Origin: Thermodesulfobium acidiphilum
Lineage (GTDB): Bacteria > Thermodesulfobiota > Thermodesulfobiia > Thermodesulfobiales > Thermodesulfobiaceae
Assembly: GCF_003057965.1 (NCBI RefSeq)
Contig: NZ_CP020921.1
Coordinates: 1,290,916 to 1,354,915, forward strand
Length of the DNA: 64,000 nt
Direction of reading: 5' to 3'
Positions 1-4,511 of the stretch are shown one piece after another (the stretch's first letter is position 1; the number at the start of each line of letters is the position of its first letter). The notes below the pieces were generated by a model. That model saw only the letters and a program-made list of their open reading frames with translations. It did not search any database and was not told where the DNA came from. Both the position numbers and the translations under genes were made by a program.

Positions 1-191
1 ACATCAACTGATTTATCGGGCATAGCCTCTAAGTCTTTGTATTTCACATCAGCAACTGTAGGCGCCCAAAACACTACTTCTAGAGAGGGTAGTACATCTA
101 CAAGGGTCTCCGAAATATCAACTATAGCCATATCACAACCGCCGCAGGCCCCCGCCATTAAAACAGCCAATCTAAGTTTTTTGTCTGCCAT
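1..191 (-). CDS. mvhG: F420-non-reducing [NiFe] hydrogenase small subunit, 5' part (runs off the window)
   Basis: Not in ORF track. Manual translation from ATG at 191: MADKKLRLAVLMAGACGGCDMAIVDISETLVDVLPSLEVVFWAPTVADVKY..., with the CGGC proximal-cluster motif. ATG overlaps the mvhD stop (TAATG). Confidence 0.88.
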   Translation of the reverse strand, partial: MADKKLRLAVLMAGACGGCDMAIVDISETLVDVLPSLEVVFWAPTVADVKYKDLEAMPDKSVD

Positions 192-607
192 TATACTCCC
201 TCCTTTACTCTGCAGGGTCCTAATTCTCTAATGTTCTTTTCAAAAGTGGTCATAGCCTCAGCAAATCTCTTCCCTTCAGAACCAGAAATCCACTCTAATT
301 GAAATCTTTCCTTTTCTATCCCCATATCAATAAGGATCCGTTTTAATAGATCGAATCTTCTTATAGCCTTATAGTTTCCTTCTTTATAATGGCAATCTCC
401 TGGGTGACATCCTCCAATAAAGACTCCATCAGCCCCTCTCTTAAAAGCCTCAACTACAAATTCAGGCTCTACTCTACCGCTACAAGGGACTCGAATTATC
501 TTTATATTTGCTGGATAATCATATCGCAAGCTCCCTGCAAGATCAGCCCCCTGATAAGTACACCAGTTACACGCAAAAACTATTAAGTTAGGCGTCCATT
601 CGCTCAT
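191..607 (-). CDS. mvhD: [2Fe-2S] hydrogenase/Hdr adaptor subunit MvhD
   Basis: FACNWC, RVPCSGRV and GCHPGDCHY motifs; 138 aa; lies between hdrB and mvhG. Confidence 0.95.
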   Translation of the reverse strand: MSEWTPNLIVFACNWCTYQGADLAGSLRYDYPANIKIIRVPCSGRVEPEFVVEAFKRGADGVFIGGCHPGDCHYKEGNYKAIRRFDLLKRILIDMGIEKERFQLEWISGSEGKRFAEAMTTFEKNIRELGPCRVKEGV

Positions 608-629
608 AATTTATTGAACCTCCATAATA

Positions 630-1523
630 CTAGTTTATCTTCTTTAGCTTTCCTAATATTCCACTCAGATCCGTTGTACTAAGTCCTACAACTTGCTGTG
701 GATCTGCCCCCAAACAAAGAGCTAACAACTGTACATAATGAACAGAAGGAATCTCATAATTAATCTTATTTTCCCTTTTCATAGGAGCCTGAGCAGTATC
801 GAATTGGATAAGACAAGAGCTACATCCTGTAACCAAAAGATCTGCTTTTATTTCATCTTTCATTGAATCAAGCTTTGTTTTTACCAATTTATATGAAGCC
901 TCAACGTTCGTAGATCGCATTCCACCCATCCCACAACAATCTACAATACGACTATAATAAGGAGCAGATGCTCCAAGGGCTTCACACAACTCCCTCAACA
1001 TAACTGGATGAAATGGATCTTTTTCTCCTTCCTGATAAACTTCACTTGGCCACAGTGAATGACATCCTGGTTGAACGCCAATAGTTACACCTTCCAAAGT
1101 ATATTTCAATGAATTTTTAATTTTTTCAATACCTACTTCGTTGTACAAAAAGTTAGTCGCAAGTCTAATCCTCGTCGTTCCCTTATATTCTTTGCCAATA
1201 GCTTTAAGCATCTCGTTTACCTTTTCTCTTAGTTCTGGTTTCTTTTCCATTTTATATTTACTCTCTGACAAACTCCCATAGCAACTTCCACAAACTGTAA
1301 CCATATCAACGTTCTTTTCTTCAGATATTATAAAGTTACGCGCTCCTAATGCACACCACCCGGCTTCGTCAACAGAAGGCATCGTCCCCCAACTTGGGCA
1401 ACAAGATTGACCCTCTAAATCGTCAATTTCAATACCAAGCGCGTCAAATACGAAACGAAATGCCTTTTCCAGATCTGGTCTATTAAATGCAGTATTACAT
1501 CCTATAAAAAATCCTACTTTCAT
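630..1523 (-). CDS. hdrB: Heterodisulfide reductase subunit B
   Basis: Two CCG domains (GC..SCC..CGSC and GCH..DCCG..CSSC); hdr operon context. Confidence 0.93.
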   Translation of the reverse strand: MKVGFFIGCNTAFNRPDLEKAFRFVFDALGIEIDDLEGQSCCPSWGTMPSVDEAGWCALGARNFIISEEKNVDMVTVCGSCYGSLSESKYKMEKKPELREKVNEMLKAIGKEYKGTTRIRLATNFLYNEVGIEKIKNSLKYTLEGVTIGVQPGCHSLWPSEVYQEGEKDPFHPVMLRELCEALGASAPYYSRIVDCCGMGGMRSTNVEASYKLVKTKLDSMKDEIKADLLVTGCSSCLIQFDTAQAPMKRENKINYEIPSVHYVQLLALCLGADPQQVVGLSTTDLSGILGKLKKIN

Positions 1524-1526
1524 CGG

Positions 1527-2093
1527 CTACACCTCACAACAAGTGACATCGGATAACCCTGAGTCCATTGGGATAATTCCCAACGAAGACAGTGCTGACT
1601 TGTTCATTAGAATTCTTAGCTCTTTTAGAGCTTGTTCATTACTTGCCGTTGTAGGAGGCTTTTCCGGCAAACCTATTTTCTTTCTAATTTCACCTGCATT
1701 AGAAAAGTATACGGCGTGGCCTACATCATATAATGATTTCAAACCTTCTACTGCAAGAGTTGGCAACGCAAACTCTCTAATTGCAGAACGCCTCATTGCC
1801 ATAACCACACCAAAAGGCTCTACCTTTCGTGGGCACACCTCAGTACATCTATTACATGCCTGACAAGCCCAGATAGAACTATCATCAAGCAAAATCTCCT
1901 TTTGACCTATTAGAATTGACTGAATAATACGCTTATTGAAAAATTCAAAACCTGCAAGAACCATCGGACACGCAGCAGCACATTTGGCACACTGGATACA
2001 ATCCAACAATTCCTCTGCTCCAAGTTTCATTATCTCATCAGAAAAACCTGGCTCACCCTCTGAAATATTAAGAACTTCTATTACTTCAGCCAC
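1527..2093 (-). CDS. hdrC: Heterodisulfide reductase subunit C
   Basis: CIQCAKCAAACP and WACQACNRCTEVCP; GTG start with AGGAGGTGA RBS. Confidence 0.92.
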   Translation of the reverse strand: MAEVIEVLNISEGEPGFSDEIMKLGAEELLDCIQCAKCAAACPMVLAGFEFFNKRIIQSILIGQKEILLDDSSIWACQACNRCTEVCPRKVEPFGVVMAMRRSAIREFALPTLAVEGLKSLYDVGHAVYFSNAGEIRKKIGLPEKPPTTASNEQALKELRILMNKSALSSLGIIPMDSGLSDVTCCEV

Positions 2094-2107
2094 TAACGTT
2101 CACCTCC

Positions 2108-2386
2108 TTAAAAAGTCAAATTCTCTATTTGAGATTCAATTTCTTCAGTAGTAAAGCCTTCTAAAATTATTGCTCTAGAAGGACACGCAGCCACACATAC
2201 CCCACATCCTGTACAGAGAGCTGGATCTATGTGTGCCCTCTTCTTGCCCTTGTATTCTATCCAACCAATAGCAGAGTAGGAACATAATGGCAAGCAAACG
2301 CCGCATCCACTACACTTATCAAGATCAATTTCTGAGACTAAAGCTTCAACGTTATCTGTAATTTTAGGGATCTCAGTTACTGCCAT
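2108..2386 (-). CDS. 2x[4Fe-4S] ferredoxin, free-standing paralog of the HdrA C-terminal domain
   Basis: Two CxxCxxCxxxC motifs; 63/80 aa identical by hand count to the HdrA C-terminus; own RBS AGGAGGTGA at 2393-2401. Confidence 0.9.
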   Translation of the reverse strand: MAVTEIPKITDNVEALVSEIDLDKCSGCGVCLPLCSYSAIGWIEYKGKKRAHIDPALCTGCGVCVAACPSRAIILEGFTTEEIESQIENLTF

Positions 2387-2407
2387 TACCGTTCACCTCC
2401 TCATTTT

Positions 2408-4444
2408 TTAAAAAGTAAGGGCCTCTATTTGTGACTCAATCTGCTCGGTGGTAAAACCATGTAAAGTTATTGCTCTAGAAGGACATGCTGAAGCACATAC
2501 TCCACATCCTGTGCAAAGAGCTGGATCTATGTGTGCCCTCTTCTTATCACCATATTCCTTCCAGCTAATAGCAGAATATGGACAAAGTGGTAAGCATATA
2601 CCACACCCACTACACTTATCTGCATTCACCTCAGAAATTAGAGGTTCTACTACAACTCTGCCCGTTGTCAACGGTACTGCCGCTGCTGCTGCTGCTGCCC
2701 TAGCTTGAGATACGCTTTCTGGAATATCTTTTGGTCCTTGAGCACAACCAGCAATGTAAATACCTTTGACTGAGGTCTCTACAGGATAAAGCTTGGTATG
2801 TAATTCTTTCAAAAAACCTTCTCCACCACATTGTATTCCAAGCTTCCTTCCAAGCTCTTCAATCCCAGGCGGAGGCTCTATTGCAGTAGCAAGAATAACC
2901 ATATCAGATTCTAATTCTACAGGAGCTCCCATATCTACGTCATATGCACGTACGCGCAAACGATCGCCCGGTAATTCATCTACACCTCCCACACGACCTC
3001 TTATCACTCTGATACCTAGCTCTCTGCAGTAAGTATAATATTCTTCAAAATCCTTACCTGCAGTACGTACGTCAATAAAGAATATATAAACGTTAATATC
3101 TGGGTATTTCTCTTTGATTAACCTCGCTTCCTTCAACATATACATACAACAAACTTTGGAACAATAGCGATGATAATTTTTATCTCTACTGCCCACACAT
3201 GAAATAAAAGCAACCGTCTTAGGATGTTGATTGTCAGAAGGCCTAAGAAGTTCACCTTCCGTGGGACCAGTAGCAGAAAGTATTCTCTCAAACTGCAAAG
3301 AAGTAAGAACATTTGGTGATTGAGGAGAATACTCTTTGAATGGAGTTTTATCCATAGCCTTAAATCCAGTCGCTGCAATTATTGTACCTACTTTTATTTC
3401 GATCAATTGACCTTTAGGATCCCATGGTATAGATCTATCACATGCACCTGTTGGGCATGCCTTTTCACAGGGAGACAAAATTGGCTCCCCTGTCTTTGGA
3501 TGGGGTTTTGGTTGAGTTCCAATAGTTCTCCCAGCACAGTTTAAACAATGATCTATGTCTACTACTGCTTTTTTAGGCACTGCCTGAGGAAATTCAATAT
3601 ATACAGCCTTTCTCTTGTCCATGTTTTCATTAAACTCATTATCAACTTTGCCCGGACAAGCTTCTACACAAGCACCACAACCGGTGCATTTATCCCAATC
3701 AATATAAGTCTGCTTTTTACGCACAAGAACCTTGAAATTTCCAATAGAACCATCTATCGATTCTACTTCTGAATAGGTCAAAAGCTCAATATTTGGGTGC
3801 GTTCCAGCAGAAACCATTATTGGTGTTAAAATACATGCTGAACAATCATTTGTAGGAAAGGTTTTATCAAGCTTTGCCATGTTCCCGCCAATTGAAGGCT
3901 GTCTGTCAAGTAAATAAACCTTATAGCCCATATTGGCAATATCAAGAGCAGCAAAAATTCCTGATACACCCGCCCCAATCACGAGGGTAGCTTTTGTAAC
4001 ATCGACATAAGAGTCTTCTAGAGGTTCAGCCAACCTTACTTTGGCAACAGCACTTGCAACCAATTTTTTTGCCTTCTCTGTAGCTCCAGCCTTATCATGC
4101 CAGTGTGCCCAGCTATCTTGATCTCTAATGTTAGCCATTTCAAAGAAATACTTGTTTAAACCCGCATCTGATACAGCTTTTCTAAAGATTGGTTCGTGAG
4201 TTCTGGGCGTACACGCAGCAACGACAACTCTGTTTACAACCCCGTTTCTAATGTCTTCTTTAATTAACTCCTGCCCTGGGTCAGAACACATAAACATATA
4301 ATCTCTTGCAATAGCAACATTGGGTAAAGATTCAGCAAATTTTCTGACCGCTTCGACGTCTACCGCACCTGCGATATTCTCGCCACAATGACATACGTAG
4401 ACACCAATTTTAAGAGCATCTTCCCCGCTAGCACTCATACTCAT
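2408..4444 (-). CDS. hdrA: Heterodisulfide reductase subunit A (FAD/FeS, electron bifurcating)
   Basis: VYVCHCG, VVVAACTPRTHE, GAGVSG FAD motif, LDKTFPTNDCSAC, CVGSRD..YCSKVCC, C-terminal ferredoxin domain. Confidence 0.96.
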   Translation of the reverse strand: MSMSASGEDALKIGVYVCHCGENIAGAVDVEAVRKFAESLPNVAIARDYMFMCSDPGQELIKEDIRNGVVNRVVVAACTPRTHEPIFRKAVSDAGLNKYFFEMANIRDQDSWAHWHDKAGATEKAKKLVASAVAKVRLAEPLEDSYVDVTKATLVIGAGVSGIFAALDIANMGYKVYLLDRQPSIGGNMAKLDKTFPTNDCSACILTPIMVSAGTHPNIELLTYSEVESIDGSIGNFKVLVRKKQTYIDWDKCTGCGACVEACPGKVDNEFNENMDKRKAVYIEFPQAVPKKAVVDIDHCLNCAGRTIGTQPKPHPKTGEPILSPCEKACPTGACDRSIPWDPKGQLIEIKVGTIIAATGFKAMDKTPFKEYSPQSPNVLTSLQFERILSATGPTEGELLRPSDNQHPKTVAFISCVGSRDKNYHRYCSKVCCMYMLKEARLIKEKYPDINVYIFFIDVRTAGKDFEEYYTYCRELGIRVIRGRVGGVDELPGDRLRVRAYDVDMGAPVELESDMVILATAIEPPPGIEELGRKLGIQCGGEGFLKELHTKLYPVETSVKGIYIAGCAQGPKDIPESVSQARAAAAAAAVPLTTGRVVVEPLISEVNADKCSGCGICLPLCPYSAISWKEYGDKKRAHIDPALCTGCGVCASACPSRAITLHGFTTEQIESQIEALTF

Positions 4445-4482
4445 CCCTCCTTAGAGAATTTATAAAAACCATCCTAAAATTA

Positions 4483-4511
4483 AGTTTAAACTACTGATAT
4501 ACTAGTGTCAA
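4483..4511 (-). promoter_or_regulatory. sigma70-type promoter of the hdr-mvh operon
   Basis: TTGACA (4511-4506), 17 bp spacer, TAAACT (4488-4483). Confidence 0.65.

Follow-up and report, generated by a model that had tools for sequence, protein, structure and literature searches.

The window, a 64,000-nucleotide stretch of the genome of the sulfate-reducing bacterium Thermodesulfobium acidiphilum, carries near one end an hdr-mvh operon that is read entirely from the minus strand. It contains a full-length hdrA (2408..4444; 678 aa), recognized from the list of open reading frames, from Pfam and from sequence matches to the HdrA chains 8rvv, 8rvu and 5odc of the PDB, which is followed, after an intergenic spacer of 21 nt (spacer 1, 2387..2407; GGAGGTGAACGGTA before ATG), by a small gene of 92 codons plus a TAA stop (2108..2386), referred to here as the mini-ferredoxin gene and supported by the open reading frame list, BLASTP, Pfam and a fold model. 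A second spacer of 14 nt (spacer 2, 2094..2107; GGAGGTGAACGTTA before the GTG) leads to hdrC (1527..2093; 188 aa, GTG start, Fer4_8 and Fer4_17), and then come hdrB (630..1523; 297 aa, two CCG domains, PF02754 in 2 stretches), mvhD (191..607; 138 aa, FlpD family, PF02662, E 1.5e-54) and the 5' part of mvhG (3..191), which leaves the window. Beyond it the genome holds the full mvhG (322 aa), mvhA (510 aa) and a HycI-type maturation protease (163 aa), after which DsrMK-like genes follow, in such a way that no mvhB is present in the operon. A terminator-like site was looked for between hdrA and hdrC and none was found. The genome also contains other small ferredoxin-like frames of 75-76 aa and two tandem HdrA-like pairs, and an [FeFe]-hydrogenase in genomes G000 and G001 carries an MvhD (64% identical) fused to a NuoF-type domain.

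The mini-ferredoxin is a copy of the end of its neighbor. Its residues 13-92 align without gaps to HdrA residues 599-678, with 63 of the 80 positions identical (BLASTP, E 1e-43), and the parent copy, a C-terminal 2x[4Fe-4S] ferredoxin domain with its linker, occupies codons 589-678 and the stop of hdrA (2408..2680, minus strand). Base 2650 opens hdrA codon 599, so the interval 2108..2650 given in the initial annotation is exact. Two CxxCxxCxxxC motifs (C25/28/31/35 and C58/61/64/68) are invariant in the alignments and provide the eight ligand cysteines of a bacterial-type 2x[4Fe-4S] ferredoxin domain; the small protein scores 51 bits with Fer4 (cut-off 21.1) and 46.6 with Fer4_7 (cut-off 27), as well as with related models, and it shares with HdrA the final IESQIE-x-LTF. 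It is not the C-terminus of the flavin polypeptide, being a 92-aa frame of its own after the hdrA stop, with its own start and a ribosome-binding site, GGAGGTG, 7 nt 5' of the ATG. Over the 240-nt core the two copies share 75.8% of their bases; synonymous differences number 33.3 and non-synonymous ones 24.7 (dS 1.31, dN 0.146, Nei-Gojobori), a divergence that points to an old copy and not to an assembly repeat. The initial annotation, which had described a 92-aa gene repeating the last 80 residues of HdrA with all 8 cysteines, the common ending, a ribosome-binding site and many silent differences, was thus accurate in all these points.

Intact 92-aa orthologs are located between hdrA and hdrC in G000, G001 (95% identity) and G003 (83%), the gene occupying in the last two the same place in the operon, as would suit a subunit of HdrABC-MvhAGD, and a fourth 92-aa copy (P0002, 79%) comes from a further assembly. 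The fourth genome of the genus, G002, lacks an orthologous hdrA and mvhD, so that the gene is present in all three genus genomes that bear the operon. Neither stops nor frameshifts were found in the four copies, and the synteny survey proposed along with the annotation therefore yielded, within the genus, an intact gene at a constant position and no pseudogene. In the tree, HdrA C-termini and mini-ferredoxins of Thermodesulfobium form one clade (99/97), within which the mini-ferredoxins group together (86/87), and 11 nucleotide differences are fixed between both paralogs, which indicates that the mini-ferredoxin genes have not been overwritten wholesale by hdrA. Their N-terminal tail, MAVTEIPK-x-TDN, is nearly invariant. 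A proline after the fourth cysteine of each motif is typical of bacterial-type 2x[4Fe-4S] ferredoxins; the second motif reads CP in every copy, and in the first one the residue after Cys35 is Pro in G003 and P0002 and Ser in G000 and G001, with Pro in 91% of 148 HdrA C-terminal sequences.

We infer that the gene arose by tandem duplication of around 294 bp. The duplicated unit would begin at hdrA codon ~589, take in the rest of hdrA with its stop as well as the intergenic ribosome-binding site, and end in the hdrC start codon, which was probably part of it; spacer 1 would accordingly be a duplicate of the ribosome-binding site and spacer of hdrC. The homology between the hdrA tail and the mini-ferredoxin gene extends beyond the stop codon through GGAGGTGAACG, and spacers 1 and 2 are near-identical, with 15 of 16 positions coinciding in G003. 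The mini-ferredoxin gene begins ATG GCA GTA, hdrC begins GTG GCT, and the corresponding hdrA codons are GCG GCA GTA, a pattern in which Met1-Ala2-Val3 would derive from the hdrC start codon and from HdrA Ala589-Val590. At the junction the hdrA tail would have come into frame with the hdrC start, and the newborn gene would have possessed at once what translation requires, ribosome-binding site and start codon, together with an entire iron-sulfur domain. The 12-aa N-terminus is consequently new only in part, as residues 4-12 are the remodeled former linker, and the first three residues can be traced to hdrC and hdrA. The duplication occurred once, in the Thermodesulfobium lineage and before the split of the sampled species. 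Readthrough of the hdrA stop, yielding an HdrA with two tail domains, was considered and rejected, because the spacer keeps the frame in G000 and G001 (21 nt) but measures 16 nt in G003.

The small gene is very probably real and under selection. Over its 92 codons dN/dS was 0.125 (G000-G001), 0.100 (G000-G003) and 0.119 (G001-G003), with an overall range among orthologs of 0.09-0.13, compared with 0.01-0.04 for the parent domain, and Fisher tests of changed versus unchanged sites gave p values of 6e-13 and 3e-5. Conserved positions were defined as those with at least 60% agreement among 148 distinct HdrA C-terminal sequences with which Thermodesulfobium HdrA agrees; 25 of those in the core are kept in all four mini-ferredoxins and 4 are changed in some, and the only 2 changed in all of them are both in the former linker. 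The dN/dS check and the conservation of core residues in the intact orthologs, three of three plus that of the further assembly, uphold the earlier proposal that the duplicate is maintained by selection. The protein nevertheless changes around fourfold faster than the parent domain (15 of 80 residues versus 4 of 80 between G000 and G003, p 0.013), indicating either relaxed constraint or a shifted role. Short gene-conversion tracts between hdrA and the mini-ferredoxin gene are hinted at by codon 22, which is CCT in both copies of G001 and TCT in both copies of G003, and by states shared at 10 sites over 3 same-genome pairs versus 4 over 6 cross-genome pairs; if such tracts are real, part of the similarity is independent of selection on the small gene. 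Recent transfer, which a low pS of 0.22 between G000 and G001 could suggest, was discarded, as other 80-codon windows of the operon gave 0.21-0.55.

No free-standing copy uncut by a contig end was found outside the genus in the searches of metagenomes, species genomes and genomes of relatives. Among 80 metagenome loci, all frames below 200 aa were cut by a contig end, except for a weak 157-aa match with 43% identity (L091), and among 80 species-genome loci the same was true for all frames below 250 aa, except for a 224-aa HdrC-like fusion (L147). In 37 other genomes of relatives each match at E <= 1e-12 belonged to a frame of 327 aa or more, and in another two phyla (8 and 75 genomes) short frames all began in the first ~450 bases of their contigs (29, 336 and 448). 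Three candidates from the protein searches probably do not represent free-standing copies: a group of 85-aa homologs, in which P0015 and P0016 show the end of a longer protein; the 89-aa P0021, whose place in the tree is beside the C-terminal part of L114, a full-length HdrA from Nitrospiraceae; and the 89-aa P0003, placed among HdrA C-termini and whose closest relative among those fetched (L034, 82% identity) lies in a long hdrA frame. Being confined to one small genus, the gene must be dispensable for Hdr-Mvh in general. Our literature searches found no paper on it.

The predicted structure of the mini-ferredoxin (pLDDT 85) has HdrA chains as its best 7 fold matches in the PDB (TMq 0.63-0.70), and its nearest relatives both in sequence and in fold are HdrA C-termini. 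It resembles in motifs, fold and C-terminal helix the HdrA C-terminal domain of the HdrABC-MvhAGD, Fdh-Hdr-Fmd and Elp-Hdr structures (5ODC, 7BKB, 8RVU/8RVY), with 38-47% identity to their HdrA chains in the fold matches and E values of 1e-18 to 1e-20 in the sequence matches, the organism's own HdrA tail being closer still (79%). Unlike that domain, it forms a polypeptide of its own without a tether to the flavin core, and has a conserved 12-aa tail in place of the linker. Wagner et al. reportedly described in 2017 an order of electron transfer from MvhG through the HdrA C-terminal domain to MvhD. The initial annotation had likewise presented the parent domain as an electron relay between MvhG and MvhD. 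A position of this domain on the electron-input side of Hdr agrees with three reports (PMC13580544, PMC9012536, PMC13518236), in which the HdrA C-terminal domain, the HdrA N-terminal domain and MvhA/G/D make up the "mobile arm" of Hdr. In HdrA genes that are split or in tandem in ANME archaea, as described in PMC9012536, and in the two tandem HdrA-like pairs of this genome, HdrA domains are also spread over separate genes, with the difference that there they are shared out between two HdrA-like proteins, whereas here HdrA keeps its C-terminal domain and an extra stand-alone copy exists.

A complex of MvhD with the mini-ferredoxin was predicted with a score of 0.47 (runs of 0.51, 0.47 and 0.41; maximum of 0.00 among 3 controls), the runs sharing at least 97% of contacts with a partner pLDDT of at least 75. 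Of 157 solved complexes 116 reach the docking mark, as do 2 of 215 mismatched pairs; only 18 of the 157, and both passing mismatches, do so with scores of 0.60 or less. The complex prediction suggested at the outset is thus weakly positive for MvhD, and the pass may reflect memory, since a similar Hdr-Mvh complex has already been solved. Docking of the mini-ferredoxin on MvhD/MvhG can be proposed only tentatively.

Because the parent domain belongs to the mobile arm, its conserved residues are kept and its linker has been remodeled, the mini-ferredoxin is most likely an electron-transfer partner of Hdr-Mvh, and we regard it as a somewhat probable reading that it is a selected iron-sulfur gene product working with this complex. 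Its gene would be co-transcribed with hdrA-hdrC-hdrB-mvhD-mvhG-mvhA, and the product, carrying two clusters, would serve Hdr-Mvh as a carrier or additional subunit for electron transfer, docked on the MvhD/MvhG side, in such a way that the hydrogenase would gain an iron-sulfur outlet without a tether to the bifurcating flavin. That it constitutes an undescribed extra subunit, as first suggested, is a reasonable hypothesis. Among the sequencing runs holding positions 1-4500 of the window no RNA run was found, a literature search for a Thermodesulfobium proteome or transcriptome gave nothing usable, and in PMC9326234 Thermodesulfobium appears only in the introduction and references. Complementation in trans of tail-less HdrA paralogs was rejected as a role: the HdrA-like paralogs with frames of 420 and 864 aa each adjoin a partner with a C-terminal domain, and hence there is no orphan in need of the mini-ferredoxin.

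The best-surviving alternative, which we consider rather unlikely, is that of a dedicated soluble carrier, a diffusible 2x[4Fe-4S] ferredoxin that takes low-potential electrons from HdrA or feeds other enzymes, like MvhB in class I methanogens, and does not bind at the Mvh-docking site of its parent. In line with this, the protein has a complete ferredoxin fold with 8 cysteines and is encoded in an operon without mvhB; the faster evolution also agrees, as it would fit a release from old interfaces. The polyferredoxins MvhB and FmdF of methanogen mvh/fmd operons are, like the mini-ferredoxin, extra iron-sulfur proteins from a hydrogenase/Hdr cluster, and similarity at the level of ferredoxin units is reflected in a summed E of 9e-23 to 9sw6_G. 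According to PMC13580544, MvhB, with six ferredoxin domains and 12 clusters, is the acceptor bound at the inserted ferredoxin domain of HdrA; the mini-ferredoxin is instead a single domain of 92 aa with two clusters, not six in tandem, and derives from a different HdrA domain. The retention of family-conserved non-cysteine residues and of the C-terminal helix ESQIE-x-LTF fits contacts of the parent type better. Minimal ferredoxins have around 55-60 aa, and a protein of 92 aa with a conserved 12-aa tail is unlike them. Short ferredoxin-like frames, moreover, already exist in this genome. Their presence also weighs against the docked-partner reading, as an ordinary carrier could work without docking.

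Still less likely is a stricter form of the partner reading, according to which the mini-ferredoxin takes the place of the HdrA domain on MvhG/MvhD as a piece of the arm in trans, so that Mvh would work off the flavin, with possible use by the [FeFe]-hydrogenase as well in G000 and G001. A very improbable option is that of a decoy or regulator that rivals the tethered domain for the hydrogenase arm and detaches or throttles Mvh, so that in certain conditions H2 oxidation would be uncoupled from bifurcation. Its 79% identity to the docking domain, the weakly supportive MvhD prediction and the exchangeability of Hdr input modules, attached via both terminal regions of HdrA and a VhuD helix according to PMC13518236, would suit such a competitor. 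However, a gene transcribed along with those of the complex, and whose ribosome-binding site is as strong as that of hdrC and identical to it, would be expressed whenever the complex is made, which is odd for a regulator; the tethered domain would have a large advantage in effective concentration over a free rival, and a pure decoy does not need the 8 cluster ligands that are kept.

Just as improbable is a non-functional passenger, a leftover frame that stays open because the operon around it is essential and because gene conversion with hdrA as donor repairs it. The hinted conversion tracts and the limitation to one genus are in line with this, but ortholog dN/dS of 0.09-0.13 (p down to 6e-13), a frame intact in 4 lineages across a dS of ~1, a clade of its own with 11 fixed differences from hdrA, and a near-invariant N-terminal tail without a donor in hdrA argue against it. 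An assembly or annotation artefact, by collapse or expansion of a repeat, has in its favor nothing beyond the repeat itself and can be practically dismissed, as 24% of the core bases differ between the copies and the same structure recurs in three genomes, two of them assembled as single contigs and one a draft, in agreement with the initial view that this is not a fresh assembly duplicate.

The interest of a partner of Hdr-Mvh of this kind lies first in the enzyme. How the mobile arm hands electrons to the bifurcating flavin is debated in recent cryo-EM work (PMC13580544 and PMC13518236), and a detached arm domain, kept by selection beside the intact enzyme, offers a natural handle on the binding of this domain and on the need for its tether. 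If the arm domain did act in trans, one hydrogenase could be switched between bifurcating and non-bifurcating delivery, and the genus would provide a natural dissection of the Hdr mobile arm. The locus also represents a clean and datable gene birth, in which a small tandem duplication would have taken the ribosome-binding site and start codon of a neighbor, with a complete cofactor-binding protein as its outcome.

The operon is read on the minus strand, in such a way that hdrA (4444..2408, 678 aa) is followed by the 92-aa ORF (2386..2108, here called mini), hdrC (2093..1527), hdrB (1523..630), mvhD (607..191) and, at the window beginning, the start of mvhG. In the source genome (G000, one 1.77-Mb contig; window G+C 34%), full-length mvhG (322 aa), mvhA (510 aa) and a HycI-type maturation protease (163 aa) lie beyond the window. 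Residues 13-92 of mini were aligned by BLASTP with HdrA 599-678 without gaps, with 63/80 identities (E 1e-43), exactly the hand count of the initial annotation, whose coordinates were also exact, since hdrA codon 599 begins at 2650. All eight cysteines that ligate the clusters are retained, as the alignments confirmed, together with the core conserved across the family and the helix at the C-terminus. Pfam matched 4Fe-4S ferredoxin models only, and the seven best PDB matches of an AlphaFold2 model (37-row alignment, mean pLDDT 85) were HdrA chains (TMq 0.63-0.70). By fold and descent, mini belongs with the C-terminal ferredoxin domains of HdrA; it is neither part of the HdrA polypeptide nor a polyferredoxin.

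In the database, mini is closest (95% identity) to a protein of Thermodesulfobium narugense DSM 14796 that its record names "4Fe-4S ferredoxin domain protein". Four genomes of the genus were compared, and a 92-aa mini was found between hdrA and hdrC in G000, G001 and G003. G002 (94% complete, 140 contigs) showed no orthologous hdrA or mvhD (best matches 38% and 31% identical), so that mini is present in 3/3 operon-holding genomes. A separate assembly contributes a fourth copy of 92 aa (P0002, 79% identity). No untruncated free-standing copy was detected outside the genus in the genomes and loci searched: all matches at E <= 1e-12 in 37 other genomes of relatives were within frames of 327 aa or more; two further phyla (8 and 75 genomes) yielded no short frames except ones that begin at most ~450 bases from a contig start; among the best 80 species-representative loci, frames below 250 aa were all cut by contig ends, except one 224-aa HdrC-like fusion; and the sole uncut frame below 200 aa in 80 metagenome loci was a weak 157-aa match. 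The database proteins P0003 and P0021 and an 85-aa group were rejected as independent cases, as they behave, where checkable, as pieces of long HdrA genes or as such genes with a wrongly called start.

The similarity between mini and the hdrA tail runs past the stop codon, through the spacer GGAGGTGAACG. In three genomes the 3' side of hdrA reads TAA-(AAAAT)GAGGAGGTGAACGGTA-ATG GCA GTA, ending in the mini start, and that of mini reads TAA-(GA)GGAGGTGAACGTTA-GTG GCT, ending in the hdrC start; in G003 both 16-nt spacers agree at 15/16 positions. Just upstream of the copied domain, hdrA carries GCG GCA GTA (Ala588-Ala589-Val590). The simplest reading is that mini would derive from a single tandem duplication of ~294 bp, which would have extended from about hdrA codon 589 into the first hdrC codons and, at its junction, placed the hdrA tail in frame behind the ribosome-binding site and start codon of hdrC. 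Residues 4-12 would then be a one-time interdomain linker; their resemblance to the hdrA linker is lost, and no mini keeps either of two residues that HdrA conserves there (Gly in 82% and Val in 71% of 148 sequences). Despite these changes, the N-terminal tail MAVTEIPK-x-TDN is nearly invariant across copies, and the first 36 nt of mini show just two differences between G000 and G003. As a gene-birth event the case is solid. In G000 and G001 a 21-nt spacer (window 2387-2407) places mini in the hdrA reading frame with one TAA between, an arrangement that is not conserved, as the G003 spacer has 16 nt.

Within G000, the mini and hdrA cores (240 nt) are 75.8% identical (dS 1.31, dN 0.146). In a maximum-likelihood tree of 19 C-terminal domains, Thermodesulfobium HdrA tails and minis form one clade (support 99/97), in which the four minis are a sub-clade (86/87) whose branches far exceed those of the HdrA tails in length. 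This sub-clade and 11 nucleotide positions with fixed differences between both gene sets point to one duplication, which would predate the divergence of the sampled species.

Selection on mini itself was measured by ortholog comparison. The dN/dS values were 0.125 (G000-G001), 0.100 (G000-G003) and 0.119 (G001-G003), compared with 0.012-0.038 for the same 80 codons of hdrA, 0.013-0.024 for whole hdrA, 0.017 for hdrC and 0.045-0.056 for hdrB. Together with Fisher tests of changed versus unchanged sites (p 6e-13 and 3e-5), these values bear out the initial proposal that mini is maintained by selection: it is clearly under purifying selection, less tight than on the hdrA tail. Between G000 and G003, 15/80 residues changed in mini versus 4/80 in the parent (p 0.013). 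Among core positions with at least 60% agreement in 148 distinct HdrA tails, and with Thermodesulfobium HdrA agreeing, 25 are kept in all four minis and 4 are altered in some, among them the Pro that follows Cys35, replaced by Ser in G000 and G001. States unique to both copies of one genome were found at 10 sites in three same-genome pairs versus 4 in six cross-genome pairs, which are small numbers, and codon 22 is CCT in both G001 copies and TCT in both G003 copies. This pattern suggests short gene-conversion tracts between mini and hdrA, so that some of their similarity may owe nothing to selection on mini. Synonymous divergence between G000 and G001 along the operon (window 2108-4444, orthologous loci L009/L027) varies more than two-fold, with pS in 80-codon windows of 0.21 at the hdrA 5' end, 0.53 at its 3' end, 0.22 in mini, 0.32-0.36 in hdrC and 0.47-0.55 in hdrB.

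The operon adjoins sulfite-reduction electron-transfer genes: 3' of mvhA and the protease (L033:1213-5960, G000:C1:1282212-1286959) are a DsrM-like membrane protein (306 aa), a DsrK/HdrD-like iron-sulfur protein (562 aa), a DsrC-like protein (108 aa) and, on the opposite strand, a small NIR_SIR-domain protein (209 aa). A second MvhD-like protein, 64% identical to the operon MvhD and fused to a NuoF-type 4Fe-4S domain (275 aa), is encoded at L194:4598-7216 (G000:C1:1008597-1011215, minus strand). Its gene immediately precedes that of a 590-aa [FeFe]-hydrogenase, after which come the large and small subunits of a second [FeFe]-hydrogenase and a cytochrome b. The fused MvhD was found in G000 and G001, which also have the most diverged minis, and not in G003.

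Electrons reportedly pass from MvhG through the C-terminal clusters of HdrA to MvhD. The parent domain of mini docks and wires the hydrogenase, and PMC13518236 describes hydrogenase or formate dehydrogenase binding via the HdrA N- and C-terminal regions plus a VhuD helix. Mini, putatively made from the message of hdrC with the same ribosome-binding site, is best read as an additional subunit or carrier for electron transfer in the Hdr-Mvh system that would still recognise the MvhD/MvhG side. The predicted complex of MvhD (41-row alignment) and mini (37-row alignment) scored 0.47 (runs 0.51, 0.47 and 0.41), with 0.00 for the best of three controls, at least 97% contact agreement between runs and partner pLDDT of at least 75. 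The mark that it passed is reached by 116/157 solved complexes and 2/215 mismatched pairs, and scores of at most 0.60 that reach it come from 18 of those 157 and from both mismatches. This lends weak support to the interaction initially proposed; as HdrA-MvhD complexes are already solved, the predictor may be repeating known structures, and its pass speaks for likeness rather than binding. In a rival reading, mini would be an ordinary diffusible ferredoxin that does the work of MvhB, a protein not encoded in the Hdr-Mvh operon of G000; in another, it would be a competing decoy. A passenger held open by conversion is disfavoured by the ortholog dN/dS, by the separate clade of the minis and by the conservation of their tail, which has no donor.

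Full-text searches on Thermodesulfobium or T. narugense with heterodisulfide reductase, HdrA, Mvh/hydrogenase or genome returned no paper discussing mini, no proteome or transcriptome of the genus was found in the literature, and no RNA sequencing runs matching the source DNA were listed. Split or tandem HdrA genes with complementary domains are already known, and two such pairs are also present in the source genome (G000:C1:431214-435907 and G000:C1:1546198-1549580), each with one member without the C-terminal ferredoxin domain (420-aa or 864-aa frame), a neighbour with it (727-aa or 604-aa frame) and a distant MvhD-like domain of its own, which is fused in the 727-aa frame at one locus and stands free, in a 136-aa frame, at the other. 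In those cases the domains are complementary between genes, whereas here full-length HdrA keeps the domain and the extra copy is free-standing.
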